Source: an uncultured bacterium | Lineage (GTDB): Bacteria > Patescibacteriota > Minisyncoccia > Phycocordibacterales > Phycocordibacteraceae | Assembly (NCBI GenBank): GCA_947085505.1 | Contig: CAMTWI010000004.1 | Span: 1,800 to 65,799 of the forward strand | Reading direction: 5' to 3' | DNA length: 64,000 bases | Shown here: piece after piece, positions 2,308 to 63,887 of the stretch | Position numbering within the stretch: the stretch's first letter is position 1 | Layout of the letters: each line of letters opens with the position of its first letter | The notes under the pieces: generated by a model | Database searches by the model: none | What the model was told of the DNA's origin: nothing | The model's input: the letters and a program-made list of their open reading frames with translations, nothing else | Program-made: the position numbers and the translations under genes

Positions 2308-2339
2308 GTGGGTACGGCTGGAATGTTTTTGCAGTTGGT

Positions 2340-2409
2340 GACCCCACGTTAGTGAGAATTGGAATCAGTTAGTATCTGAACTCAATACTTGGCTGGTGTA
2401 TGGACGGTC
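2340..2409 (-). repeat. Pseudo-tRNA-Glu-3'-end direct repeat, distal copy
   Basis: Plus strand reads GACCCCACGTTAGTGAGAATTGGAATCAG... The first ~29 nt are near-identical to 3083-3110. Read on the minus strand it is ATTCCAATTCTCACTAACGTGGGGTCAC, resembling the tRNA-Glu 3' end TTCGATTCCCCGTGGGATCAC. Confidence 0.6.
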
Positions 2410-3076: not shown

Positions 3077-3082
3077 GAGTGT

Positions 3083-3151
3083 GACCCACGTTAGCGAGAA
3101 TTGGAATGAGCCCGTGCAGGAGCTTAATACCTGGCTAACGTTTGAGGGGTC
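3083..3151 (-). repeat. Pseudo-tRNA-Glu-3'-end direct repeat, proximal copy
   Basis: Plus strand: GACCCACGTTAGCGAGAATTGGAATGAG...GCTAACGT..GGGGTC. Minus strand: ATTCCAATTCTCGCTAACGTGGGTCACA, compared with the tRNA-Glu 3' end plus flank TTCGATTCCCCGTGGGATCACA. Confidence 0.6.
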
Positions 3152-3530: not shown

Positions 3531-3605
3531 AGCGATATTGTATCAGGTTCCAATGACTAATTGGGTACCGTCATGACGTGGCTTAAAATAAGCACAAAAA
3601 CATTG

Positions 3606-3677
3606 TGATCCCACGGGGAATCGAACCCCGATTTCCTGCGTGAAAGGCGGGCGTCCTAACCGTTAGACGATGGGACC
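3606..3677 (-). tRNA. tRNA-Glu (UUC)
   Basis: Minus strand: GGTCCCATCGTCTAACGGTTAGGACGCCCGCCTTTCACGCAGGAAATCGGGGTTCGATTCCCCGTGGGATCA. Cloverleaf folds by hand; anticodon loop is CTTTCAC. Confidence 0.9.
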
Positions 3678-3763: not shown

Positions 3764-4726
3764 ATGGGACTTATCATATCGCTTGCCTTACTTTTCATTG
3801 GGCTCCTCATCTTAATACTCGGGGCCGATTGGCTCGTGAAGGGGGCATCCTCTATAGCGCGAAGGTATGGAATCTCGCCCCTTGTTATAGGTCTTACGGT
3901 AGTGGCGTTCGGGACTTCAATGCCGGAACTTTCCGTGAATATCTACGCGGCACTTTCTGGTGCCACGGGACTTGCGGTAGGGAACGTCGTTGGTTCGAAT
4001 ATCGCAAACATCCTGCTCGTACTCGGTGCGTCGGCTATTATCTGCAGTTTGTCGGTAAAGTCGAGTACGGTGAGGTGGGAGATACCACTCGCGCTCCTTG
4101 CGAGCGTGCTTGTGCTTGTGGTGGGTAGTGACCGGCTTCTCGACGGTGCGGTTATCGACGTTATTACACGGACTGATGGCATCGTGTTGCTCGGATTGTT
4201 TGCGATATTTATGTTTTATATCATCGCGCTCGTTAAAAGCGACTCGAGTGCAATTGAGATTGATGATAGTGAAGCGCTCCCGAGAAGGCGCGCGGTGCTC
4301 TACACCGTTGTCGGACTTGTCGGACTTGTTGCGGGCGGGCGACTACTCGTAGATCAAGCGGTATCGTTCGCGACACTGGCCGGACTCTCCGAAGCTGTTG
4401 TCGGACTTACGGTAGTTGCGATTGGTACCTCGCTTCCTGAACTCGCAACCTCTGTAGTCGCCGCGTGGCGTAAACAAGTAGATATTGCCGTTGGCAACGT
4501 TATTGGCTCAAACATTTTCAACGTCTTCCTTGTACTTGGCGTAAGCTCGGTCATCGCGCCTTTGCCGGTACGTGATGGGTTCGTGGTCGATGCGCTCGTG
4601 ATGATTGCTGCGACACTCTTTTTATTTGTTGCGCTTTTCCTTGGCAAGCGCGGGCACATCGATCGATGGCAAGGAATACTATTTGTGCTTCTGTATTTTG
4701 CATACGTGACGTATTTGCTCCTCTAA
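3764..4726 (+). CDS. Ca2+/cation antiporter (CaCA, YrbG-like)
   Basis: 320 aa, about 10 TM segments. Two alpha-repeat motifs, GTSMPELSV and GTSLPELAT, each followed by GN(V)(V/I)GSNI. Confidence 0.85.
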   Translation: MGLIISLALLFIGLLILILGADWLVKGASSIARRYGISPLVIGLTVVAFGTSMPELSVNIYAALSGATGLAVGNVVGSNIANILLVLGASAIICSLSVKSSTVRWEIPLALLASVLVLVVGSDRLLDGAVIDVITRTDGIVLLGLFAIFMFYIIALVKSDSSAIEIDDSEALPRRRAVLYTVVGLVGLVAGGRLLVDQAVSFATLAGLSEAVVGLTVVAIGTSLPELATSVVAAWRKQVDIAVGNVIGSNIFNVFLVLGVSSVIAPLPVRDGFVVDALVMIAATLFLFVALFLGKRGHIDRWQGILFVLLYFAYVTYLLL

Positions 4727-4781
4727 GCCGACCCTTATCATTTACTGCTTCTCTTGATAGGATGCAGGGGTTCCAACACAG

Positions 4782-4869
4782 GGAGAGGTGCGTGAGTGGT
4801 TGAAACGACCGGTTTCGAAAACCGGCATACCGAAAGGTATCGGGAGTTCGAATCTCCCCCTCTCCGCCA
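4782..4869 (+). tRNA. tRNA-Ser (CGA), CCA encoded
   Basis: GGAGAGG...CCGGT TTCGAAA ACCGG, long variable arm, GGAGTTCGAATCTCC CCTCTCC G CCA. Confidence 0.9.
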
Positions 4870-4910
4870 AAGAAAAAGGGCGCTCGCTTTCGCGGGCGCC
4901 CTTAGAAGGT

Positions 4911-6080
4911 CTAGTACAACGTTGGCTTGTTGCGATCCTTCAAGAATGCAGCAATGGTTTCCGGGGCTGAGAGCCCCGGGTACGCCACTGATCCATTCAC
5001 GAACATTCGCATCGGCACGCCTGCTCGCTCGAGCATCTCAAAGCCCGCACGACCAGTTGGGTTCAGGTTGTCCGTTATGAATCGAAGGCTCTCCCCAACA
5101 TGCCGTAGTCCGAAACGAGAATCATTACGATCGAGATACGGCGCAAGTGGGGAATCACCCACAAGCAGGAAGGTAGCGCGTAGTGCACGCCCGGCGTAGC
5201 ACCCAGCCCGAAGGTCAGGAACTTGGTCACCAGCGATGAGGAGATCCTCGATCATCTCTCCACGGGAGAGAATTGCGAGTGTCTCGTCCACCATTTCTTC
5301 CTTCGATGCATACCGCGGCATGAGATAGAACTGAAACTTTTCGATAGTTTCATCGCTCTCGTCCACAATCCGCAAGTTTTGGTGAATGTTTCCAAACTCC
5401 TCAACGAGCGAATTATTGTTCTCAACCGTAATACCGGAGAGGTTTGCAATCTGTTGCAAACCAAGTAGGGCTGTTTGGATATCGTTCTTAACGCGATCTT
5501 TGATTGCCCGATTCTGGAACTGGAACTGAATGCGATACTCAAGAGGCATCACGTCCGTTCTCGCTGCCCGGTAGTTCTCTTCGAACTCGATGGGCGCGAG
5601 ATAGTCCCGGTAGTCTTCCAGGAGTGGATTACGAATGAGTCGTATGAAGTTGAGCGCATGCGCGCGCCAATTAATGCCAAGCCGTCGCTTGTATGAGCGA
5701 CGTTCTCGGTACCACTCCTCAGGCTGTAGGAAATAACAGCCGGTTCCCATACTCATGATCGCTTTCGGATCCGTGAACGGCACACGACATGCAATCGTTT
5801 CCGGCTTCAGGTAGTATCGTCTTCCCGGCGTTCCCCCAAGGAGTGGGCGAGGCCGGCTGAAGCCGTTATGAACTGATGTTGTGTGGTATTCGTTCGACAT
5901 TAGCATTTCCGCGGTTTGCGCTGAGGCAACCGTGAATGTGCCGTTTGCGTCGACGTAATCACGCACGAATTGGGCGGCGGCAAGCGCTTCAGGCGCTGCC
6001 GTGCCATCCTTCATGGCCTCGGTCATTAAGGTGCCGTCGACATCAAAGACGCCAACATACCCCAAGCTCGGCGTCTCCAT
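4911..6080 (-). CDS. HAD-superfamily hydrolase-like protein with large cap insertion
   Basis: 389 aa. N-terminal FDVDGTL (HAD motif I) and C-terminal LLIAGDQVPD (motif IV-like). Substrate unknown. Confidence 0.5.
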   Translation of the reverse strand: METPSLGYVGVFDVDGTLMTEAMKDGTAAPEALAAAQFVRDYVDANGTFTVASAQTAEMLMSNEYHTTSVHNGFSRPRPLLGGTPGRRYYLKPETIACRVPFTDPKAIMSMGTGCYFLQPEEWYRERRSYKRRLGINWRAHALNFIRLIRNPLLEDYRDYLAPIEFEENYRAARTDVMPLEYRIQFQFQNRAIKDRVKNDIQTALLGLQQIANLSGITVENNNSLVEEFGNIHQNLRIVDESDETIEKFQFYLMPRYASKEEMVDETLAILSRGEMIEDLLIAGDQVPDLRAGCYAGRALRATFLLVGDSPLAPYLDRNDSRFGLRHVGESLRFITDNLNPTGRAGFEMLERAGVPMRMFVNGSVAYPGLSAPETIAAFLKDRNKPTLY

Positions 6081-30388: not shown

Positions 30389-30390
30389 AG

Positions 30391-30475
30391 TACCGGGGGC
30401 GGGACTTGAACCCGCACGGCATTGCTGCCAAAGGTGTTTAAGACCTTCGTGTATAACCAATTCCACCACCCCGGC
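30391..30475 (-). tRNA. tRNA-Leu (UAA)
   Basis: Minus strand: GCCGGGGTGGTGGAATTGGTTATACACGAAGGTCTTAAACACCTT + long variable arm + GCGGGTTCAAGTCCCGCCCCCGGTA. Confidence 0.85.
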
Positions 30476-37896: not shown

Positions 37897-37977
37897 GGAA
37901 ATGGAAAAACCGTCCGGAGACGGTTTTTCCAGTACGTTCGTGAACTCTTTGGCCGAAACCTCGGAAATCACGAACGT
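37897..37977 (-). ncRNA. Candidate ~80-nt small RNA
   Basis: Minus strand. Starts ~7 nt after a TTGACA-N17-TAGAGT promoter. Has a 10-bp perfect stem ACGTTCGTGA..TCACGAACGT enclosing the CCGAGGTTTCGG hairpin, then the terminator hairpin GGAAAAACCGTC-TCCG-GACGGTTTTTCC + ATTT. No start codon. Confidence 0.45.
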
Positions 37978-37983
37978 TTGATC

Positions 37984-38012
37984 ACTCTATCCTAAGCGAT
38001 TTTTGCTGTCAA
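37984..38012 (-). promoter_or_regulatory. Consensus sigma70 promoter driving the candidate sRNA
   Basis: Minus strand: TATTGACA-N17-TAGAGT. Confidence 0.55.
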
Positions 38013-38040
38013 TACCCAAAAAGCAGGTTGGGGATAGCGG

Positions 38041-38067
38041 GCGGGCCCTGTGGGACGAGATTCGAAA
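38041..38067 (-). repeat. Pseudo-tRNA-3'-end element at the distal edge of the tRNA-Trp island
   Basis: Minus strand: TTTCGAATCTCGTCCCACAGGGCCCGC. T-loop-like TTCGAAT plus AGGGCCCGC, compared with the tRNA-Trp end TTCGATT..AGGCCCGC. 19/27 ungapped identity to the tRNA-Gln-locus repeat GTTCCAACATCGTCCCAGATTGCCAGC. Confidence 0.55.
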
Positions 38068-38090: not shown

Positions 38091-38993
38091 GTGAACACCA
38101 CTCTCATTCTCGAGGAGCTCTACTCAAAGGAGGAGATCGAAACTGCTTTCGATACTAATTTTGGTCCGCGCATAAAGGGTATTACTCAGCGACGTTCTTC
38201 AGATAATGAGCCATATATACTCATATTTGCTTCCGCTCGCGGCTCAATAGTGTACGGGGATAGGGTTGAGGGTAGGATTTTCTATTACAAGGGTGAGGGA
38301 TCAGACGGTGACCAGAAGCTTACAACCGCAAATAAGGCACTGATAAATTCAAATCTAAACAAGACACCCATCTTTGGTTTTCGTCAGCATGAGATTGGTG
38401 GCAAATACCAGTATCTTGGATTGGTATCGGTCCTTGAGTGGACCTATGCAGATTTCAATGGCAGAAAGGTGTATGAATTTAAATTCGAACAGGAGGGCTT
38501 AGAGAATCCTCTGCAAAGTACTAAAGAGTGGAATGAAATAAAGAACCAAAGTGAGCTTCCGGACCCATCCCTCACGGGAACGGGTGAAGTAGCTGTATCT
38601 ACTGTATCTAGCATAAAACGAAATGCAGCCTTTCCATTAAAGATTAAGGAGCAGTATCAGAATCGATGTGCTGTGTGTAGAAAATCACGGTGTACGGCTG
38701 CTGGGTACCCAGAGGTTCAGTCCGCCCATATATACCCAAAGGAGAAGAATGGAGCAGATGACTTAAGAAATGGCATAGCTCTATGCAGGCTTCATCACTG
38801 GGCTTTTGACGAGGGGCTGCTGGCTATTTCTGATGATTTAACTCTACTCGTTAACAATGCCATTACAAAGGATGAAGACTACGAAGAAATTAGCAAGTAC
38901 GCCGGAGTAGCTATCCTGCCTCCTCTGGACAAACGATATACACCGTTGCCACTTTTTCTGACAGAGCATAGAAAGCTACATGGGTTTGAGTAG
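38091..38993 (+). CDS. SRA(YDG)-like domain fused to HNH nuclease; putative modification-dependent (type IV) restriction enzyme
   Basis: 300 aa, GTG start. N-terminal YILIFASARG..FYYKGEGSDGDQKLTTANKALINS parallels the SRA motif Y.L...GGY....F.YTG.GG...DQKLT..N.AL. C-terminal CAVCRK..AHIYPK..NGIALCRLHHWAFD is HNH. Confidence 0.75.
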   Translation: MNTTLILEELYSKEEIETAFDTNFGPRIKGITQRRSSDNEPYILIFASARGSIVYGDRVEGRIFYYKGEGSDGDQKLTTANKALINSNLNKTPIFGFRQHEIGGKYQYLGLVSVLEWTYADFNGRKVYEFKFEQEGLENPLQSTKEWNEIKNQSELPDPSLTGTGEVAVSTVSSIKRNAAFPLKIKEQYQNRCAVCRKSRCTAAGYPEVQSAHIYPKEKNGADDLRNGIALCRLHHWAFDEGLLAISDDLTLLVNNAITKDEDYEEISKYAGVAILPPLDKRYTPLPLFLTEHRKLHGFE

Positions 38994-39083: not shown

Positions 39084-40088
39084 ATGAAGCTAAACTACGA
39101 AATAACGCCTGAGAATCTCAAGATTCTGGAAATCAAGCAAGTACTGCTGGATAAAGAGAAATTCGGTGCTCTTACGTTTGATCGGGCTTATTTACCTCTG
39201 CATGAGCTCAGGAAGATGTTTGTAGAGTTTCAAGAGCTCGACTACGCTTCTAAACTGGCTCCTGACGAAGTGCAAGAAGTGGAAAACTACAAGAATCAAC
39301 TTCTTGACTATGTTCGCCGAGTTCACTCAATAGATCCTACTACTGATCCTACTTTTAATACGAATGTTCGTGAGAATTTAGAAAATGAAATAATAAGTTT
39401 TTGTCAGCGAGTGAGTAAGGTTTTGAGAAACAACCTTGTCTATCTTAGACAGGAGCTTGCTCTTAGGAATCAGGACCAGCAAAGCTTAGCTGAAGAACAA
39501 AAAGCTACTGTGCAAGCGAGGAAGCAGGCAGAAGAAACGTTAAGTCAACTACAAGCAAAGCTTGAGGAACTAACTAGTAGAGAGCAGCAGCTCGAAAACA
39601 AATCAGGCGAGTTTGGTGCGAAGGCTCTCGGAATTCATTTTGGTACCGAGACAGATAACTATTCGGATGTAGCTAATAAGTGGTTTGTTGCCTCAATCGT
39701 TGCCTATCTTTTTCTTGTTTTCATCGTAATTGGTATAGGAATCTATTACAGTTTTTTCCATGGCGGCGGCTGGGAAACTCTTACGTGGCAGGAGGGAACC
39801 GCAAAGCTCTTTCTCTTTGCGGCTCTATGGTACGGATTAACCTTCATTACACGAAACTACAATGTAAATTCACATCTTGCTGCTGTAAATCGGCATCGTG
39901 CAGCAGTCGCTAAAACTCTCGAAGATTTCCTTGCTTCAAGTCCATCTGCTACTGGTGAAATGTTGAAGAATGGTACAGAAGCCATGTTTCGGCATGTAGC
40001 GATCGGTTTCATAACGAAAGCCGAAAAGGATTCTGGAAACCCTCTTCTTGAAGTCGTGAATAAGGTGGTGAATCCAAAAGGGGAATAA
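39084..40088 (+). CDS. Coiled-coil protein with C-terminal double-TM domain (unknown function)
   Basis: 334 aa. Heptad-rich QQSLAEEQKATVQARKQAEETLSQLQAKLEELTSREQQLE, then WFVASIVAYLFLVFIVIGIGIYY and LFLFAALWYGLTFI helices. Confidence 0.55.
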   Translation: MKLNYEITPENLKILEIKQVLLDKEKFGALTFDRAYLPLHELRKMFVEFQELDYASKLAPDEVQEVENYKNQLLDYVRRVHSIDPTTDPTFNTNVRENLENEIISFCQRVSKVLRNNLVYLRQELALRNQDQQSLAEEQKATVQARKQAEETLSQLQAKLEELTSREQQLENKSGEFGAKALGIHFGTETDNYSDVANKWFVASIVAYLFLVFIVIGIGIYYSFFHGGGWETLTWQEGTAKLFLFAALWYGLTFITRNYNVNSHLAAVNRHRAAVAKTLEDFLASSPSATGEMLKNGTEAMFRHVAIGFITKAEKDSGNPLLEVVNKVVNPKGE

Positions 40089-40203: not shown

Positions 40204-40770
40204 TTAGGACAAAGAGTCTTTGGGGGTTGCAAGTTTTATATAGTCTAGCAATCGGTACTGATCTATAAGTTCAATCGGCTTGTCTTCAGCAAACTTTCTA
40301 GCTTCAAGAGTGAATCCTGCAGTAGTGATGAAATAGGCTTGCCCGTTTGCTAGGCGACCTGCTATAGCCCCGTAGAAATCTCTAATAGCTGACACCGGCA
40401 CCTGTCGAGTGATGTATCTCTTGCACTGAATATAGTTTGTAACACCGTTTTTCGTGGCAATCACATCAATCCCACCGTCGTAAGATTTTCCGACCGCTTC
40501 AGCCTGATACCCAAGTTGTATAAAAAGCTCAGCAATATAATCCTCGAACTCTTTAGGACTCATGCCCCGTATCCACTGGATAAGATCTCTATCAGATCTC
40601 CATTGCGCACCAGCCTTGAACTGCCGCTTGTTCCTCCATGAGCGATAGAGATCAGGTAAAACGACTTCGACCAGTACCCGAAGAACAAGCATTCCGAACA
40701 CGAAGACAATAAGCCATCCGAACACGGGTGAAAGCATTTCCACAATAGGATTGCTCGGAAAGATATCCAT
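40204..40770 (-). CDS. Membrane-anchored Mrr-like restriction endonuclease
   Basis: 188 aa. N-terminal TM (FGWLIVFVFGMLVLRVLV). FEDYIAELFIQLGY..DGGIDVIA...IQCKRY..V..IRDFYGA..FITTAGFT matches the Mrr_cat D-(Q/E)xK core (recalled). Confidence 0.8.
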   Translation of the reverse strand: MDIFPSNPIVEMLSPVFGWLIVFVFGMLVLRVLVEVVLPDLYRSWRNKRQFKAGAQWRSDRDLIQWIRGMSPKEFEDYIAELFIQLGYQAEAVGKSYDGGIDVIATKNGVTNYIQCKRYITRQVPVSAIRDFYGAIAGRLANGQAYFITTAGFTLEARKFAEDKPIELIDQYRLLDYIKLATPKDSLS

Positions 40771-41340: not shown

Positions 41341-41562
41341 TTATTTGAGGAAATAAGAAATATCTTTCTTGTAGATCTTGGCAAAGCGCTGAAGTTCTAT
41401 GACATCAACACGTTGTTGTCCCGACTCTACATTTGAGATATGCGACTGAGGCCTGTCGAGTTTCTTGGCAACTTCAGTCTGGGTCAGTCCTGCATCAAGG
41501 CGAGCCTTTCTAAGACGCTCGACAAAAACGGCATATTCCTTGGTATGAACTGACTTCTTCAT
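41341..41562 (-). CDS. XRE-family helix-turn-helix regulator
   Basis: 73 aa. RLRKARLDAGLTQTEVAKKLDRPQSHISNVESGQQRVDVIEL is a canonical HTH_3. Confidence 0.85.
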   Translation of the reverse strand: MKKSVHTKEYAVFVERLRKARLDAGLTQTEVAKKLDRPQSHISNVESGQQRVDVIELQRFAKIYKKDISYFLK

Positions 41563-42577: not shown

Positions 42578-43351
42578 ATGGGATACACAAAAATTATTCA
42601 GTCAGGAGATCTAATCGAAAAATATGAGTACGAAAAACCTCCGCCCGAGCGTGTGCCTCGAAAGGTTAAGCCGGGGCGTATCGCTCCGTGGTCCGATCAA
42701 CTTACCGAAGAAAGGAGAGCAGATTGCATACACAAGAGACGAATATCAAGCATTAATCGTTGCCGCCAGTCGTTTTTCCGTCTCGTACGAGCGAATCTAC
42801 ACGCGGGCGCTCCCATCCTGCTCACACTCACAATGCTGGATATCGTGGACCTCAGAACTGCATACGCTTGCTACCACGAATTCGGACAAAGGCTGCGTCG
42901 AATTATCGGAAAGAATACTTCTTGGATTGCTGTGCCGGAGTTTCAGAAAAGGGATGCCGTACATTTCCATGTTCTGATCTGGAATCTACCCCATGAATAC
43001 ATTGAAACCGAACCAGACACCCGTCGAATTCAGAATCTCTGGAGAGCCGGTTATGTTGATCTTGTTCAGACAGACGGTTCGCCTAAGCTTGCTACCTACC
43101 TCGCAAAGTACATGTCCAAAGCGATGCAGGACCCTCGGCTCCTGGGACAAAAAGCGTATAGTGCTAGTCGGAATATATTGCGCCCGGTGTCGTTCAACAC
43201 TCAAACGTCGGTTAACACTGCTTGTGAGGTCTGGGGCATAACTGACGAGACAAAGCCAGAGTATGATCGGGAATTCGACACAAAGTGGATGGGGAAATGT
43301 CGCTATACTTCCTATTCTATCCAAAATATAGATAATGCTAAGGACGCATGA
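42578..43351 (+). CDS. HUH-type rolling-circle replication initiator (Rep)
   Basis: 257 aa. AVHFHVLIWN is the HUH motif and ATYLAKYMSK the Y-x-x-K-Y catalytic Tyr motif, as in small ssDNA phage/plasmid Reps. Confidence 0.7.
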   Translation: MGYTKIIQSGDLIEKYEYEKPPPERVPRKVKPGRIAPWSDQLTEERRADCIHKRRISSINRCRQSFFRLVRANLHAGAPILLTLTMLDIVDLRTAYACYHEFGQRLRRIIGKNTSWIAVPEFQKRDAVHFHVLIWNLPHEYIETEPDTRRIQNLWRAGYVDLVQTDGSPKLATYLAKYMSKAMQDPRLLGQKAYSASRNILRPVSFNTQTSVNTACEVWGITDETKPEYDREFDTKWMGKCRYTSYSIQNIDNAKDA

Positions 43352-44811
43352 AATACATTCTCTACTGTCGAAAATCTACGGATAACGAAGATAAGCAAGT
43401 CCTCTCACTCGATTCCCAGAAGATCGAGCTAGAACGTCTTGCTGAGCGTGAAGGTATAGAGATTGTTGCGACACTTACTGAAAGCCGGTCTGCAAAGGAG
43501 CCGGGTCGTCCCGTCTTCAATGAACTTATGCACCGAATCGCATCCGGTGAGGCCGATGCGGTTCTCTGTTGGAAAATAGATCGCCTTACTCGAAATCCTG
43601 TAGACGGTGGACAAATCCAATGGCTTCTCCAAAAAGGTTTGATCAAATCTATTCGGACCTTTGAACGAAGCTACAGCCCTTCTGACAATGTGCTGCTCAT
43701 GAGTATTGAACAGGCAATGGCTACTCAGTACCTTCGGGATCTGTCTGAGAATGTTAAACGCGGGAATAGAACCAAATTGGAACGAGGAGAGTGGCCAAGC
43801 TACGCACCTTTTGGCTACAAGAATGACAGGGTAAACAAAACTATTCTCGTAGATGAGAATCGCGCTCCTTATATTCGTCGGGCGTTTGAGCTATATGCAA
43901 CAGGTGGGTATGGCCTGAACCAAGTGGTAGAGATTCTTTATAGTGAGGGTTTCAGATCAAAGACTGGAGGCAAGGTTTTTAAGAACCAGATACATCATTT
44001 CCTAAATAGCCGTTTTTATATTGGCCTTATGGAAAGACAGGGAAAACTCTACCAGGGGAAGCATGAACCTCTTGTTTCTCAAGCTACGTTTGATCGAGTT
44101 CAAGAAGTGCTGCACGGAAGACTTCGTCCTTGCATGAAAAAGCATTTCTATTCTGCGCGCGGGTTCCTTAAATGCGAACTCTGCGGATGCATGATCACTG
44201 CTACTACCGCTAAGGGCCGGAAGTATTACTACTGCACAAATGGTAAGGGAAATTGCGGGGCCCACAAGAAATACCTAACTGAGGAAAAAACAGATCTTCT
44301 TGTCTCAAAACTCTTTTCCGAACTGGATATGGATGAGGAATTCATATTGCTCTGCGCGCAAGCCTTTCGAGAGGAGCACGGAAGTACCTCAACATATGAG
44401 GATCTACGTCCTGCAACTATCCAAAAGGAACTGGACGCTCTCGCTCTCAAAGAATCTCGCCTTACCGATTCCATGGCCTCTGGGGTCCTCAAAATGGAGC
44501 TGTACGAAGAGAAAATGCGTGAGATCGAGAATGGACGAACAGAACTCAAATCCCAGCTAAAAAGTATCGAAAATGAGAAGGGGGCCAATGCTACTTTCGA
44601 ACAGGTTCTAGATGTGTTTCTAGAAAGCAGTAGAGCCGCCAAACGATATTTGGAGGTTGATGAACAGGAAAAACGAAAGATGCTCGAAAAACTACTTTCG
44701 AACGCCTCTATCCTTGGAGAAGAAACGGCTTACTTTAAGTTTAAAAGTCCTTATCAGGCACTAGCTCTAGCACCTAAAAACAGGGATTTTCAAATGATGC
44801 GGGCCTACTAG
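43348..44811 (+). CDS. Large serine recombinase
   Basis: 487 aa. N-terminal resolvase catalytic domain (ILYCRKSTDNEDKQVLSLDSQ..CWKIDRLTRN), recombinase domain, Cys zinc-ribbon (CELCGC..YYYCTNGKGNC), C-terminal coiled coil. The 3' end overlaps tRNA-Trp. Confidence 0.9.
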   Translation: MKYILYCRKSTDNEDKQVLSLDSQKIELERLAEREGIEIVATLTESRSAKEPGRPVFNELMHRIASGEADAVLCWKIDRLTRNPVDGGQIQWLLQKGLIKSIRTFERSYSPSDNVLLMSIEQAMATQYLRDLSENVKRGNRTKLERGEWPSYAPFGYKNDRVNKTILVDENRAPYIRRAFELYATGGYGLNQVVEILYSEGFRSKTGGKVFKNQIHHFLNSRFYIGLMERQGKLYQGKHEPLVSQATFDRVQEVLHGRLRPCMKKHFYSARGFLKCELCGCMITATTAKGRKYYYCTNGKGNCGAHKKYLTEEKTDLLVSKLFSELDMDEEFILLCAQAFREEHGSTSTYEDLRPATIQKELDALALKESRLTDSMASGVLKMELYEEKMREIENGRTELKSQLKSIENEKGANATFEQVLDVFLESSRAAKRYLEVDEQEKRKMLEKLLSNASILGEETAYFKFKSPYQALALAPKNRDFQMMRAY

Positions 44812-44870
44812 GAATCGAACCTAGGACGTCGGTTTTGGAGACCGAAGTTATACCATTTAACTATAGACCC
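44800..44870 (-). tRNA. tRNA-Trp (CCA)
   Basis: Minus strand: GGGTCTATAGTTAAATGGTATAACTTCGGTCTCCAAAACCGACGTCCTAGGTTCGATTCCTAGTAGGCCCG. Anticodon loop CTCCAAA. Confidence 0.9.
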
Positions 44871-44948
44871 GGTATTGCCCACGATACCAGATACAGGGGT
44901 AGTGGAAAAGAACCCGTAATTAGAGCGTGCGCGGGATACAATCACTCT

Positions 44949-45983
44949 ATGAAAAGGCTCCTAGCCCCGCTCCTCCTTTTGTTCGTGCTCTTCATACCGT
45001 TTGCTGTGAGTGCACAATCGAATCTCCCACTCTTTGATCCGGACTGGCAGCTCGTGCCGGATGCACACAAGATTGATCCAGAGAACTGTCCTGAAGGGTA
45101 TCCTCTTGGATTTGCAGGAGTGTTGCAGCTCATACAAAACGGCATGAACGCGGCGATATCATTCGGCGTTATTATTTTTGTTTTGATTATCGCGGGCGCT
45201 GGTATCCTCTGGATTCTTACCCCAACGAATCCCGAGAATCATTCACAAGCAAAGAAGATTCTCACGAATGCGGTTATTGGTCTCCTGATTATTCTTTCAG
45301 CGTGGCTTATCGTTGATTTCGTTATGAAGCTTCTCTACAACCCTAACGCTCGTAATTTCGGTCCCTGGAATCAAATTCTTACCGGAGGAGACCTCTGCAT
45401 TAAGCCGATGGAGAATCTTCAACCTCTGTTTAGTGGGAATATTTTCTCAGTTCCAGGACGAGGAACTGGTGCCGATAGTGGAGGACCCGCAAGTCTCGGT
45501 AGTGGGTCTTGTTCTCCAACACTCATAAGCAATGCAGCATACATGGGAGGATACCCTCTTACGCAAGCTCAGGCGAATACGTTTTCCTGTCTGGCACAAG
45601 CAGAAAGCTCTTGCGGCACCAATATTTCAGGAGCCAAGACAGTTGATGGAAGACCAACAACTGCACACGGCATGTTCCAGATCGTCATGGGGTATAACGA
45701 CAAGTGTCATAATTTGAATGTTACGGTGTGTTCTTCAGCTGCAAGGAATGCTGGCTGGCGAGGATCAGGGGATTTAAATTGCTCGCAGGCATTTTCAGGA
45801 GGTAGAGTTAAGCAGGGTCAGGAAGAGCTTGCGCGAGTCTGTAGAGCAGCAGCAGCGAATATTGTTTGTAATGTCTCAGCTGCCGCATGCCTTCTTAAGG
45901 AGCGGCCTGATTTCGGCGACTGGACATCGGACCCCCGAAGTACGAGACAGAAAGCATGCATTGCTACCTTTTCTGGCCAATAA
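44949..45983 (+). CDS. Pilin-like (TrbC/VirB2-like) module fused to a lytic-transglycosylase-like domain
   Basis: Start moved to ATG 44949 (signal peptide MKRLLAPLLLLFVLFIPFAVSAQS). Two TM helices with ..ILTNAVIGLLIILSAWLIVDFVMKLLYN. C-terminal CLAQAESSCG...AHGMFQI resembles the SLT E-S...G(L/M)(M/F)Q(I/V) motifs. Confidence 0.6.
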   Translation: MKRLLAPLLLLFVLFIPFAVSAQSNLPLFDPDWQLVPDAHKIDPENCPEGYPLGFAGVLQLIQNGMNAAISFGVIIFVLIIAGAGILWILTPTNPENHSQAKKILTNAVIGLLIILSAWLIVDFVMKLLYNPNARNFGPWNQILTGGDLCIKPMENLQPLFSGNIFSVPGRGTGADSGGPASLGSGSCSPTLISNAAYMGGYPLTQAQANTFSCLAQAESSCGTNISGAKTVDGRPTTAHGMFQIVMGYNDKCHNLNVTVCSSAARNAGWRGSGDLNCSQAFSGGRVKQGQEELARVCRAAAANIVCNVSAAACLLKERPDFGDWTSDPRSTRQKACIATFSGQ

Positions 45984-45986
45984 TAT

Positions 45987-46562
45987 ATGAATATGAACTG
46001 GAAAATAATTCTTGCCTCTATTTTTCTCATACTCGGTCTTGCAACCATACTTATTACTGCATTCTTAATGCTAGATACTTCACCAAGGCAGTCTATCGAA
46101 GAGTCCCCTCAGGTTCTGTTTCCAACGAGCGGGGTGTTCGAGGCTACGGATTCTACAGGGAGACTTACACTAACGGGTGAAAGTGGTGAACCCATAACTG
46201 TAAAAGATTTTATTCGTAACGGTGAGACCGTTACTGACACTGTGAATCCTGGATCTTTCGTACTTGCTGGAAGTGTTGGTTATTGCTTGGAGGACGGATC
46301 ATGTCCTGAGGGTGCAAACACCGATAATTTCTCCATTACCTACAATAACGAGATTCAATCGTTCAATATTGTTCTACTTGCAGAGCCTCTTAGAAGATCC
46401 AGGGAGGCATCTGAGCGCTTTCTCATTGAAAGGCTCGGTCTTTCACAAGAGGATCTATGCAGACTGAACTACAATCTAGGAGTTCCTTATTTCGTAAATG
46501 AGCAATTCGCTGGTCAGAACCTACGGTTTAGTTTCTGCAAGGATGCTATCGTTCTACCATAG
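45987..46562 (+). CDS. Hypothetical membrane-anchored protein
   Basis: 191 aa. N-terminal TM (ILASIFLILGLATILITAFLML). Lies between the two pilin-hydrolase fusions. Confidence 0.5.
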   Translation: MNMNWKIILASIFLILGLATILITAFLMLDTSPRQSIEESPQVLFPTSGVFEATDSTGRLTLTGESGEPITVKDFIRNGETVTDTVNPGSFVLAGSVGYCLEDGSCPEGANTDNFSITYNNEIQSFNIVLLAEPLRRSREASERFLIERLGLSQEDLCRLNYNLGVPYFVNEQFAGQNLRFSFCKDAIVLP

Positions 46563-46566
46563 GTAT

Positions 46567-47481
46567 ATGAAAAGAATATTTTTACTCGTTCTAGGATTCT
46601 CCCTACTTCTACCCCTTTCTGTAGAAGCGCAGTTCGGTCCCATAGTGCCTGAAGTGTGCCGCACGTGCGCGTGTGGATTTGGTGGAGTGCTTGCTATTGT
46701 GCAAAATGTCGTCAATTTCATGATCGGTATAGCGATTATTTTCGCCACTATCATCATGGTATGGGCAGGAGGTCTCTACATACTTTCTGCAGCTAATCCT
46801 GAAAGCCGTAGTACGGCAAACAAAATGCTCATCAATGCGGTTATAGGTCTTCTGATTGTTCTGTCTGCGTGGCTAATTGTCGACTTTGTTATGAAGACGC
46901 TTTATAACAACGGCAGCGAATTCGGTCCATGGAACTCCATCCTGCTTGGTGGTTCAGGAGACAGCTGTGTAGTGGCGAAGCCAACGACACCACTTTTTAG
47001 TGGAAATATCCTTGCTGTGCCTGGAATGGGAACGGGGAGTGAAAACACAGGAGCGAGCGGTACTGTGGAGCTTGCTGGGGGCTGTACGGGTACGGGTACA
47101 AATTCAACGTGCTCTCGTTTGCCAAGTAATGTTGTATGTGAGGCGAGAGGCTGTTATGCAGATGCAGGGTTGGCAGCAGCGCTGGGTAATATCCGCAGCA
47201 GTGTAGGATGGGCTGTTACAGAAGGGTACCCAAAATCTCGATCCCATCGTGCAGCATGTCACTCAAATGGAACATGTGTTGATGTAGGTCTTCGTCCTAG
47301 AAATTACACCATAGAAAATATTATTGCATTTGACACTGCAGCTAAGGCAGCTGGTTTACGACCCGTTTACGAGGAGAAAGAGGACAGAGATTTCGTCGAA
47401 CAACTCAAGAGAAGAGGGGTGAATGCAATTTTCTTAGGCGATCACATTAGTGCTGATCACTTCTCTGTCTACGCTAATTAA
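46567..47481 (+). CDS. Pilin-like module fused to a putative zinc D,D-peptidase (M15/hedgehog-fold-like) domain
   Basis: Start moved to ATG 46567. N-terminal ~130 aa are paralogous to 44949.. (MLINAVIGLLIVLSAWLIVDFVMKTLYN, GPWNSILLGG, PLFSGNI). C-terminal SRSHRAACHSNGTCVDVG ... ADHFSV resembles H-x-x-G-x-x-x-D ... H zinc ligands. Confidence 0.55.
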   Translation: MKRIFLLVLGFSLLLPLSVEAQFGPIVPEVCRTCACGFGGVLAIVQNVVNFMIGIAIIFATIIMVWAGGLYILSAANPESRSTANKMLINAVIGLLIVLSAWLIVDFVMKTLYNNGSEFGPWNSILLGGSGDSCVVAKPTTPLFSGNILAVPGMGTGSENTGASGTVELAGGCTGTGTNSTCSRLPSNVVCEARGCYADAGLAAALGNIRSSVGWAVTEGYPKSRSHRAACHSNGTCVDVGLRPRNYTIENIIAFDTAAKAAGLRPVYEEKEDRDFVEQLKRRGVNAIFLGDHISADHFSVYAN

Positions 47482-61215: not shown

Positions 61216-61286
61216 TGGGAGATCGTCTAATGGTAGGACAGCGGCCTTTGAAGCCGTGAATCTAGGTTCGATCCCTAGTCTCCCAG
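61216..61286 (+). tRNA. tRNA-Gln (UUG)
   Basis: TGGGAGATCGTCTAATGGTAGGACAGCGGCCTTTGAAGCCGTGAATCTAGGTTCGATCCCTAGTCTCCCAG. Anticodon loop CTTTGAA. Confidence 0.9.
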
Positions 61287-61307
61287 CAATCTTGATACAA
61301 TTTCCTT

Positions 61308-61969: not shown

Positions 61970-62017
61970 TACGCCCTCCGTTGTTTCTAGACAGAACGTA
62001 GCATATGTTGCAAAAAG

Positions 62018-62046
62018 GTTCCAACATCGTCCCAGATTGCCAGCAA
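62018..62046 (+). repeat. 29-nt pseudo-tRNA-Gln-3'-end repeat, copy 1
   Basis: GTTCCAACATCGTCCCAGATTGCCAGCAA, preceded by CAAAAAG. TATAGA hexamer lies 34 nt from the repeat start. Confidence 0.8.
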
Positions 62047-62057
62047 TAAAGTATAGA

Positions 62058-62318
62058 AAAATCCCCCAGAGCTACTTGCGCGCGGCTCATGGGGGAGTTG
62101 TTGGCTCTATAAAGAGTTTTTGTTCGCTGCTTCTGACACACATGCCTGCATGTCTGAGGGGCGGGGTATGATTTACTTTTATCTCCAGCTGTACCACATA
62201 GGCTGGCTAGTGGACTTGCTCTCCCTTTTTTGGAAGAGATATCCTGCGGTCCATCCCTGACCGTGTTCTTTTATCTGAGATTAACATACTTTAATTAATC
62301 TATACTGTCAATAGCATA
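62058..62318 (+). pseudogene. Non-coding module resembling a skeletonised 23S rRNA domain I segment
   Basis: No credible ORF. Colinear short blocks match recalled E. coli 23S: UCCCCCAG.AGC..GGGGAG; ACACA..AUGC..CAUG.CUG.G; GAG.GGGCGGG; AUAUCCUG; GGUCCAUCC; CUGACCGUG. Confidence 0.35.
62283..62311 (-). promoter_or_regulatory. Sigma70-like promoter pointing leftward (antisense to the module, toward the MazG-like gene)
   Basis: Minus strand: TATTGACA-N17-TATGTT. Confidence 0.4.
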
Positions 62319-62347
62319 GTTCCAACATCGTCCCAGACTGCCAGCAA
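62319..62347 (+). repeat. 29-nt pseudo-tRNA-Gln-3'-end repeat, copy 2
   Basis: GTTCCAACATCGTCCCAGACTGCCAGCAA. TGCTATACT (extended -10) begins 32 nt from the repeat start. ATG of the next gene is at 62376. Confidence 0.8.
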
Positions 62348-62375
62348 TACTGCTATACTCTTTTTGTAAACACAT

Positions 62376-63411: not shown

Positions 63412-63454
63412 CCTACGCTATCTAAAAGCTACACTTTGCTTCAATTCGCAAAAG

Positions 63455-63483
63455 GTTCCAACATCGTCCCATACACCCAGCAA
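63455..63483 (+). repeat. 29-nt pseudo-tRNA-Gln-3'-end repeat, copy 3 (variant)
   Basis: GTTCCAACATCGTCCCATACACCCAGCAA, preceded by GCAAAAG. TAAAAT hexamer lies 34 nt from the repeat start. Confidence 0.8.
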
Positions 63484-63495
63484 TGTTCTAAAATC

Positions 63496-63850
63496 TAGCT
63501 CGCACAGCAGAGCAGATTGATACTTTAGAACTATGCATCTGAAAGGCTAGACAAAAAGAAGGTCAGTGCTACGCTACTTATGGATCGGAAATGTCTCCCA
63601 CAGAGAGTACAGGCTCGCTTGGAGGCAGAAAGGGACGAACCCTAACCGACAGCTAAGGTCCTTAAGTTGGTGCTAATAGTGTTTTTCAGAAGCCCCATGC
63701 GGGCCCATGGATGAACGCAAAAACCGAGGGGTTAAGCACACCACCGAAGCTTCGGAGACAAGACCAATCCTGTTAATGGTCAACAAACTGTCTGGTACGA
63801 TCCAACCGAAAAAGCCCGTCGCAGCAATGCGGCGGGCTACTTCTTTATAT
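63496..63850 (+). ncRNA. ~345-nt 23S rRNA domain II-like RNA (mimic or decayed fragment) with its own terminator
   Basis: No ORF. GAAAGGGACGAACCCUAACCGACAGCUAAGGUCC and GGGGUUAAGCACACCACCGAAGCUUCGG match the recalled E. coli 23S H41-region strands. The segment corresponding to H43-H44 is missing. Ends in GCCCGTCGC-AGCAAT-GCGGCGGGC + TACTTCTTT. Confidence 0.5.
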
Positions 63851-63858
63851 ACAAAAAA

Positions 63859-63887
63859 GTTCCAACATCGTCCCAGACAGCCAGCAA
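63859..63887 (+). repeat. 29-nt pseudo-tRNA-Gln-3'-end repeat, copy 4
   Basis: GTTCCAACATCGTCCCAGACAGCCAGCAA, preceded by ACAAAAAA. TAGCAC hexamer lies 34 nt from the repeat start. Confidence 0.8.

Follow-up and report, generated by a model that had tools for sequence, protein, structure and literature searches.

Short sequences that resemble the 3' ends of tRNAs lie beyond three different tRNA genes in an uncultured bacterium of the Patescibacteriota (Minisyncoccia; Phycocordibacterales; Phycocordibacteraceae), and raise the question of what put them there. We analysed a 64,000-nucleotide (nt) stretch of contig CAMTWI010000004.1 (assembly GCA_947085505.1) – referred to here as the window – in which seven such elements are distributed among the tRNA-Trp, tRNA-Gln and tRNA-Glu loci. 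The original prediction, made from the sequence alone, held that each joins a common half resembling a T-loop to a locus-specific half copying the neighbouring tRNA, and that they are hybrid attachment (att) sites of related elements integrated into different tRNAs. All seven exist as described, and comparative loci from other genomes support the hybrid-site proposal. The explanation that accounts best for the whole, and in which we have good confidence, is that the seven are attR-type junctions of integrative elements whose movement depends on a single family of large serine recombinases (LSRs) that use tRNA 3' ends as bacterial attachment sites (attB).

The 27-mer at 38041-38067 (minus strand, TTTCGAATCTCGTCCCACAGGGCCCGC) is situated 6.7 kb downstream of tRNA-Trp in the orientation of the tRNA, and forms the far edge of a block of low GC content (0.43-0.46 versus 0.52-0.55). 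The tRNA-Gln locus contains four copies of GTTCCAACATCGTCCCAGAyyGCCAGCAAT on the plus strand (the T of TTCCAAC is at 62019, 62320, 63456 and 63860), and the tRNA-Glu locus two copies of TTCCAATTCTCrCTAACGTGGG(G)TCAC on the minus strand, at 3106 and 2364. In one fixed register, each site has at its end the terminal bases of the tRNA beside it – GGCCCGC (Trp), CCAGCAAT (Gln) or TCAC(A) (Glu) – and starts with a TTCSAAY heptamer. In six of the seven the heptamer is exactly 5 nt further from the end than the real T-loop, which sharpens the earlier estimate of a middle some 4-5 nt too long; in the exception, the second Glu site (Glu r2), one extra G makes the offset 6. The Trp element and the first Gln repeat are identical at 19 of 27 ungapped positions, as originally counted, and in a fixed 28-nt register the Trp element matches the four Gln copies at 18-20 positions. 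TTCSAAYNTCG occurs seven times in the window where 0.69 occurrences are expected; the matches at 3994 and 41839 lie inside open reading frames (ORFs), have no tRNA-like end, and were taken as chance. This anatomy supports the seven as putative attR-type hybrids, each consisting of an element-borne P arm, (GG)TTCSAAY.TCGT.CCA.A, and a core of 5-9 nt identical to the last bases of the neighbouring tRNA.

A large serine recombinase is encoded at the Trp locus (43348-44811), with Resolvase (PF00239), Recombinase (PF07508) and Zn_ribbon_recom (PF13408) domains. R8, S10 and four cysteines (C276, C279, C296 and C303) are invariant among 23 homologues, residues 155-458, the C-terminal part, align to the A118 integrase structure 4KIS (E 2e-6), and the C-terminal domain also aligns to the SPbeta integrase 9DXH. 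There are 2057 homologues at E<1e-20, and we took 80 LSR loci from species-representative genomes, of which 74 have sequence beyond the gene. A convergent tRNA is present within 300 nt of the LSR end in 62 of these 74, often overlapping the stop codon and including 15 isotypes, with a background tRNA density of 0.106 per kb in the comparison. Several of the LSR loci with no detected tRNA are contig ends inside a tRNA or have degenerate tRNAs, and none showed an attP. Viral contigs (IMG/VR) gave a single weak LSR match, and on the evidence of that database the family is not one of phages.

The same arm-plus-core site recurs on the LSR-distal side of these loci, on the tRNA strand and 3-11 kb from the tRNA, as GGTTCCAAC.TCGt.CCAcA followed by the tRNA end of that locus (...ACGGCCCGCA at a Trp locus, L025; ...CCCCGAGCA at Gln, L030; ...CGCACA at Lys, L039; ...AGAGCA at Asn, L041; and ...GCTGCCAA at Glu, L049). 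The pattern TTC[CG]AA[CT].TC[GA]..CC has 29 matches in 1.24 Mb of LSR loci, against about 1.2 expected by our own estimate, and about 25 of the 29 are on the tRNA strand and the LSR-distal side. In 21 sites nt 71-74 are those of the adjacent tRNA, in one fixed register, and the geometry of the Trp attR matches all 21; the identity blocks in 24 site/tRNA pairs are 5-9 nt long and have tRNA nt 71-74 as their intersection. These associations support the LSR family of the 43348-44811 gene as the probable recombinase of the sites. The original prediction had doubted a serine recombinase, because that family does not normally leave long tRNA-derived repeats; the doubt is answered by the tRNAs adjoining its homologues and by the course of the LSR reading frame through attP described below.

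The division into two halves also extends beyond the window. The common half corresponds to the P arm, which is kept across about 20 genomes and at least seven tRNA isotypes, and the specific half to the core shared with the tRNA end. Arms beside different isotypes are 77.5% identical over 20 nt, versus 63.7% for the corresponding tRNA segments, and the commonest form of the arm, TTCCAAC, needs a C at position 57 that is present in none of 118 real T-loops in the comparison loci, all of which have a purine there. The similarity is thus above that expected from generic T-loop conservation, and because the arm is more conserved across isotypes than the tRNA segments are, it appears to travel with the element and not with the host.

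Reconstruction of attP – by joining the arm and core of attR with what lies to the right of the attL core – indicates an unusual location. In every reconstructed attP the LSR frame continues through core and arm in one frame, giving tails of the form ..LaVW(D/Y)(D/E)VGT.. or ..ALWD(D/E)IR(T/N)... Tails of this type are present in about 15 of the 120 best database homologues, some of them with about 25 further conserved residues ending ..LREAG, and tRNA-antisense tails (..DSNQD..) in 58 of the 120. Moreover, P arm, core and LSR 3' end are contiguous, with no tRNA, in two metagenome contigs, L108 and L090, which contain an intact attP. L108 is a 117-kb contig with no tRNA within 10 kb, and its LSR 3' end contains TTTCGGATGTCGTCCCATAATGCCCGCATTGTGACAAAATC, with a Trp-type core and the same 26-nt geometry as the Trp attR. 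The predicted attP of the free element therefore lies inside the 3' end of the LSR gene, with a P arm, a short core (tRNA nt ~70-75) and a P' arm that would also encode the LSR C-terminus; a synthetic form of the Trp-element attP can be written as ATTATATTTCGAATCTCGTCCCACAGGGCCCGCATCATTTGAAAATCCCTGTTTTTAGG. Integration would swap the native LSR tail (..LWDEIRNIIQL) of a predicted 499-aa free form for tRNA-encoded codons, Y-stop at Trp. L108 (Ga0255842_1715758) has a GC content of 0.386, an ArdC-like gene and ORFs of 844 and more than 2300 amino acids (aa), and looks like a large extrachromosomal element; if so, large replicons of plasmid- or phage-like type use the LSR family as well.

Close relatives confirm the Trp insertion and its tRNA-side boundary. 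Three contigs whose ClpB is 97-99% identical to that of the window (L093, L095 and L098) are without the 6.7 kb Trp island; they are homologous to the window as far as 38014-38023 and again from 44797, 2 nt past the tRNA end. The site is occupied in these relatives by unrelated inserts of 413-738 nt, so they give no clean empty site.

We propose that attP recombines with the tRNA around nt 71-74, a position indicated by the shared bases and comprising the end of the acceptor stem and the discriminator. The tRNA would remain intact, now beside P' and the LSR (attL), and the P arm and core would be moved to the far end of the element (attR) as the 'pseudo-tRNA end'. The P-arm heptamer is most likely the recognition motif of the zinc-ribbon domain (ZD), and in attB the same ZD would recognise the real T-loop, GTTCGAAT, whose distance from the crossover is 5 bp shorter; GGTTCCAAC and GGTTCGAAT are candidate ZD-motif duplexes. 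There is a precedent in the A118/LI integrase, whose 9-bp ZD motif is located at half-site positions 16-24 in attP and 11-19 in attB (Rutherford et al. 2013, PMC3783163). Such a shift of the motif between attP and attB would explain why the sites look like tRNA ends and why they are too long by exactly 5 nt. Wherever the T-loop is correctly placed, the heptamer is exactly 5 nt farther from the core than the T-loop is. Identity between P arm and tRNA peaks at a shift of +5 for the outer 11 nt (0.57 versus 0.23 at shift 0), and at shift 0 for the inner 8 nt (0.43). With GTTCGAATC (T-loop G53-C61) as positions 19-11 the centre falls at nt ~71-73, and the intersection of the identity blocks is nt 71-74; it is on their left arms that the sites agree exactly with this geometry. 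The T-loop-like half is accordingly best read as a putative attP motif resembling a T-loop, and not as a displaced or copied piece of tRNA. Of the original description of the elements as copies of tRNA ends, what stands is the core of 5-9 nt.

Several observations weigh against this scheme. No recombination was observed. A clean empty site for the Trp or the Gln locus was not recovered among relatives, and two comparison loci are irregular: in L008 (tRNA-Tyr, with the LSR 159 nt from the tRNA) the right flank of attR is identical over more than 30 nt to the flank of the tRNA itself, and in L024 (tRNA-Lys) the distal repeat copies the tRNA 3' end faithfully over 21 nt and is not a +5 site. Right half-sites are unconserved, with only CA or AAT after the core: the attR right arms of 15 loci show no conservation, and those of 17 Gln-type sites and tRNAs keep only AAT. 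No clear dyad symmetry is seen in attP: P' is not a mirror image of P, and LSR coding confounds the conservation of P'. Canonical LSR sites are themselves imperfectly symmetric. (A TTCCAAC/GTTGAA pairing, found in a by-hand search for an attP dyad, was rejected because its centre, at nt ~66, is outside the identity block.) The search pattern itself included the heptamer, which selects in part for the +5 similarity to the T-loop, and as a family trait this similarity amounts to roughly one evolutionary observation; P-arm conservation is also explained in part by coding for the LSR tail. The window has no Gln- or Glu-specific LSR, and the internal array junctions carry no LSR 3'-end remnants (their scores with a position weight matrix [PWM] of the LSR-type P' arm are in the null range), apart from about 14 nt kept at the third Gln site. 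Finally, the Glu copies are identical to the Trp and Gln sites at only 9-13 of 28 positions in the fixed register – essentially the TTCCAAT heptamer, the spacing and the core – and the Glu-type arm, TTCCAATTCTCRCTAAC (also written TTCCAATTCTCGCTAACG), has no match in any of 92 fetched loci.

The last two points, together with the departure of Glu r2 from the +5 rule by one nt and the absence of a WDD-type tail on the other strand, would also fit Glu repeats with no relation to the LSR sites, belonging to some other element family or arising by a local duplication in which TTCCAAT occurs by chance. We regard this as rather unlikely, although it is the alternative to which we give most weight. 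The two copies are 22/28 identical and yet bound unrelated units directly downstream of tRNA-Glu, and in the first the heptamer, the spacing of +5 and the core at nt 71-74 all agree, in a test that gave one match in control directions at five tRNAs. Two distant LSR loci, L048 and L050, likewise keep mainly the heptamer and vary in the inner arm. The link once drawn through TTCSAAT(T)CTCG needs a 1-nt indel; heptamer, spacing and core are what the Glu sites have in common with those of the Trp and Gln loci, to which they are tied only loosely.

It is considerably less probable that the shared half is conserved only as coding sequence for the LSR tail (W-D-D/E-V/I-G/R-T), with the T-loop likeness and the offset incidental. 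The LSR does read through the arm in one frame with a recurrent peptide in every reconstructed attP, the tail occurs in database LSRs, and there is variation at wobble positions beyond the heptamer, as selection on the protein predicts. Within the heptamer, which is under selection as DNA, the pattern is the reverse: the synonymous third codon positions (nt 50 and 53) are invariant and first positions change the residue radically (Gly/Arg, Val/Ile). The residue after the Trp is D, Y, C, F or R through first- and second-position changes, the third position being fixed. Furthermore, the arm is kept at 16/16 nt in four window units and five relatives, where there is no LSR and it encodes nothing, and the offset has the value predicted by the LSR structural work (PMC3783163).

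The family-wide scheme has also to be set against the usual picture for sites of this kind – downstream of tRNA 3' ends, in tRNA orientation, and bounding low-GC accessory DNA – which is that of classical tyrosine-integrase islands, with the pseudo-ends as displaced and diverged tRNA 3' fragments. We consider this very improbable. No tyrosine recombinase (Phage_integrase) was found by Pfam in any island or array ORF scanned, the LSR being the only recombinase; a tRNA-identical stretch of just 5-9 nt is no faithful tRNA copy; the sites have 5 extra nt and the same non-tRNA TCGT.CCA whatever the tRNA; and the C at 57 and the conservation of the arm over genomes and isotypes point to a sequence that moves with the element. 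Equally hard to credit is that the sites are RNA-level signals – tRNA-like 3' modules acting as processing sites, terminators or promoters of adjacent small genes, for which their tRNA-end look and their intergenic position, often just past terminators and ahead of the next gene, might speak – since they have no significant single-strand fold (z -0.9 to +0.9), no T-stem partner upstream of the heptamer and no Rfam match, adjoin genes in mixed orientation, and co-vary with the LSR family and the adjacent tRNA core. Without such a fold the processing mechanism offered in the original prediction is not supported.

Table 1. Sites, tRNA genes and element genes of the three loci; att assignments are predictions. 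Coordinates are those of the window.
Feature	Coordinates	Strand	Remarks
attR of tRNA-Trp element	38041..38067	-	P arm TTTCGAATCTCGTCCCACAG 38067 to 38048; core GGCCCGC 38047 to 38041, equal to tRNA-Trp nt 68-74
attR right flank (B' side)	38015..38040	-	not alignable with close relatives; homology resumes 38014-38023
SRA-HNH nuclease (ScoMcrA-like)	38091..38993	+	cargo
Coiled-coil protein	39084..40088	+	element gene
Mrr-type restriction endonuclease	40204..40770	-	cargo
Xre-type helix-turn-helix regulator	41341..41562	-	regulator of element
Replication initiator (REP_ORF2-G2P / RepSA-like)	42578..43351	+	rolling-circle type
Large serine recombinase	43348..44811	+	487 aa; last four codons and stop inside tRNA-Trp
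attL of tRNA-Trp element	44773..44821	-	B arm (T-loop, T-stem and acceptor 3' strand of the tRNA), core GGCCCGC 44805 to 44799, P' arm ATCATTTGAAAATCC... (opposite strand encodes LSR C-terminus)
tRNA-Trp(CCA)	44799..44870	-	integration target
tRNA-Gln(TTG)	61216..61287	+	anchor of four-unit cassette array
Gln site r1	62017..62047	+	GGTTCCAACATCGTCCCAGATTGCCAGCAAT, P arm and core CCAGCAAT; closes unit 1 (DUF3850/ASCH gene, 110-aa ORF)
Gln site r2	62318..62348	+	closes unit 2 (about 300 bp, no ORF)
Gln site r3	63454..63484	+	closes unit 3 (two small ORFs); right flank has about 14 nt resembling LSR 3' end (..DFRTLL, other strand)
Gln site r4, outermost	63858..63885	+	conserved core genes come next
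tRNA-Glu(TTC)	3605..3677	-	anchor of two-unit array
Glu site r1	3081..3108	-	TTCCAATTCTCGCTAACGTGGGTCAC; heptamer, +5 spacing, core TCAC(A); closes unit with nucleoside-deoxyribosyltransferase-like gene
Glu site r2	2338..2366	-	TTCCAATTCTCACTAACGTGGGGTCAC, one extra G; closes unit with 162-aa ORF; sortase gene (core) next

The cargo of the Trp island consists of two nucleases of modification-dependent type, SRA-HNH and Mrr (Table 1), and suggests a small defence island. The window genome contains T4SS_pilin (PF18895) genes, and homologues are named Paceibacterota, Komeilibacteria and similar. Contigs identical to the window were found in Logan runs ERR3478706 and ERR3478709. In an empty-site search by exact-protein look-up the LSR and pilin genes matched only these same two Logan contigs, and the window ClpB had no exact-protein record.

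The surroundings of the Trp island show further variation. Between ClpB and attR, 37905-38014 (minus strand) contains a promoter-like box (tattgacagc...taggatagagt) followed by a hairpin and an intrinsic terminator; the feature is conserved in L093, L095 and L098, has no Rfam match, and may be a small RNA of about 80 nt. Past the tRNA, GC content is still low (0.445-0.48) over 44835-47481 and its T4SS-pilin-like genes, of which about 45472-46625 is not alignable with close relatives and forms a second variable region beside the integration site. At tRNA-Leu(TAA) the case is reversed. This tRNA is unoccupied in the window (30390-30475) and followed by alanine racemase; in L098, whose ClpB is 99% identical to the window's, a distantly LSR-like ORF of 457 aa without a resolvase-domain match (4566-5973) is convergent on it, and divergence from the window begins right after C74.

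The genes of the Gln and Glu loci are all small and accessory, with no recombinase among them. Five relatives (L101, L102, L104, L105 and L106) keep the flanks of the tRNA-Gln array and have unrelated cassettes: the interval from tRNA-Gln to the zf_Tbcl_2 gene contains, in different relatives, SnoaL_2; OmdA; or AAA_17, His_Phos_1, a methyltransferase and others. The window and the relatives share, by blastn, nothing but the outer flanks and the ~30-nt sites, and one 85-aa ORF cassette is common to two of the relatives. The Gln array has four sites and the Glu array two, and arrays in other genomes have 2-5, with five in L020 and three in L028. Repeated insertions beside tRNA-Gln and tRNA-Glu would build such arrays of small LSR-less units, each ending in a site, and the lack of right-arm constraint would let a tRNA serve as attB repeatedly. 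The units may be decayed full elements or cassettes moved in trans, the movement of LSR-less units being inferred.

Some features of the arrays stand apart from this question. Gln-array units 2 and 4 (62048-62317 and 63485-63857) have no ORF of 60 aa or more, and their content could be decayed remnants or non-coding cargo. The first position of Logan contig L092 corresponds to 62319 of the window, so that the contig starts exactly at Gln site r2, and many homologues of the neighbouring M10 peptidase are on contigs of 1-2 kb; repeated sites appear to break short-read assemblies. Two other interpretations were tried and discarded: arrays as stacked intact LSR ends were ruled out by the null-range P' PWM scores, and the Gln sites as promoters by -35/-10 spacings that were unfit on inspection by eye.

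We suggest tentatively, as a possibility short of an even chance, that tRNA genes of Patescibacteria anchor an integron-like cassette system run by serine integrases, in which only the left half-site (of T-loop type in the tRNA and of +5 type in the cassette) and a short core are recognised. If so, the tRNA stays a competent attB after every insertion and every P-arm site a competent attP, and an LSR encoded elsewhere could, in trans, take up, stack, excise and rearrange cassettes that have no integrase; the swap of the LSR C-terminal tail could then act as a switch between free and integrated states. Like integron arrays, those described here consist of small, often single-gene units that each end in a conserved site, have one fixed anchor and no recombinase in the cassettes, and differ completely in content between close relatives (the window, L101, L102, L105 and L106). 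Unlike integrons, neither the window nor the arrays of the relatives have an IntI tyrosine recombinase or an attI/Pc platform, the sites do not fold like attC (DNA folding z -0.9 to +0.9), the arrays are anchored at a tRNA gene and hold genes in mixed orientation, and the enzyme inferred is an LSR acting in trans.

The elements have clear affinities with characterized LSRs (A118/LI 4KIS, SPbeta SprA, phiC31 and Bxb1), having resolvase, recombinase and zinc-ribbon domains and aligning to 4KIS and 9DXH. They share a short attP/attB core, hybrid attL/attR flanks, and an outer motif 5 bp further out in attP. Excision by such enzymes requires a directionality factor, for which no candidate was identified. 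They differ in that the target is the 3' end of tRNAs of at least 15 isotypes and not a protein-coding gene, the outer motif of attB is the universal T-loop, and attP is inside the integrase ORF, so that integration alters the C-terminus of the protein. In addition, the right half-sites are without recognisable conservation or symmetry, and thus without the imperfect inverted repeat of such sites; the sites form tandem arrays; and the elements are plasmid-like, with a Rep gene and one viral-contig match. An attP inside the integrase gene, such that integration alters the integrase, is known from myxophage Mx8 (intP/intX) and SSV1, both with tyrosine recombinases. The elements here similarly have an integrase ORF that spans attP and an integrated copy with a different C-terminus, but use a serine integrase and a replacement tail read from the antisense strand of the tRNA. 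The tycheposons of Prochlorococcus also occupy hypervariable islands beside tRNAs, with older elements pushed outward, tRNA-like repeats, degenerate remnants, cargo and defence genes and replication modules, and a minority have an LSR. However, tyrosine recombinases are the enzymes of 910 of the 937 tycheposons, in which the repeats are genuine tRNA fragments (Hackl et al., bioRxiv 10.1101/2020.12.28.424599), whereas the present elements combine an LSR with 5-9 nt of tRNA identity, an attP arm offset by +5 and patescibacterial hosts.

Serine integrases have been described as "not known for targeting tRNA genes", and their use of t(m)RNA genes as unreported, with 14 of 297 cases seen and proof called for (Mageeney et al. 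2020); tRNAs are unmentioned in the largest survey of LSR att sites (Durrant et al. 2022). We found no report in the open-access literature of tRNA-targeting LSRs in Patescibacteria, and within that literature LSR integrative elements with a tRNA attB, a T-loop-mimicking attP arm, an integrase ORF spanning attP, and cassette arrays are new. The LSR family described here, of more than 2000 members, would target tRNAs, of at least 15 isotypes, as its normal mode. It offers a natural test of the zinc-ribbon motif-shift model, as the attB motif would be the universal T-loop and the attP mimic 5 bp further out, and suggests how an integrase family may hop between tRNA targets, by keeping the outer motif and changing only core-proximal bases. 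LSRs that read a T-loop-like motif and a short variable core could interest tool design, since tRNA genes are conserved landing sites. The sites would also explain assembly breaks at these loci, and the elements, carrying defence cargo and small accessory cassettes, would be a major route by which genes enter and leave the strongly reduced patescibacterial genomes.

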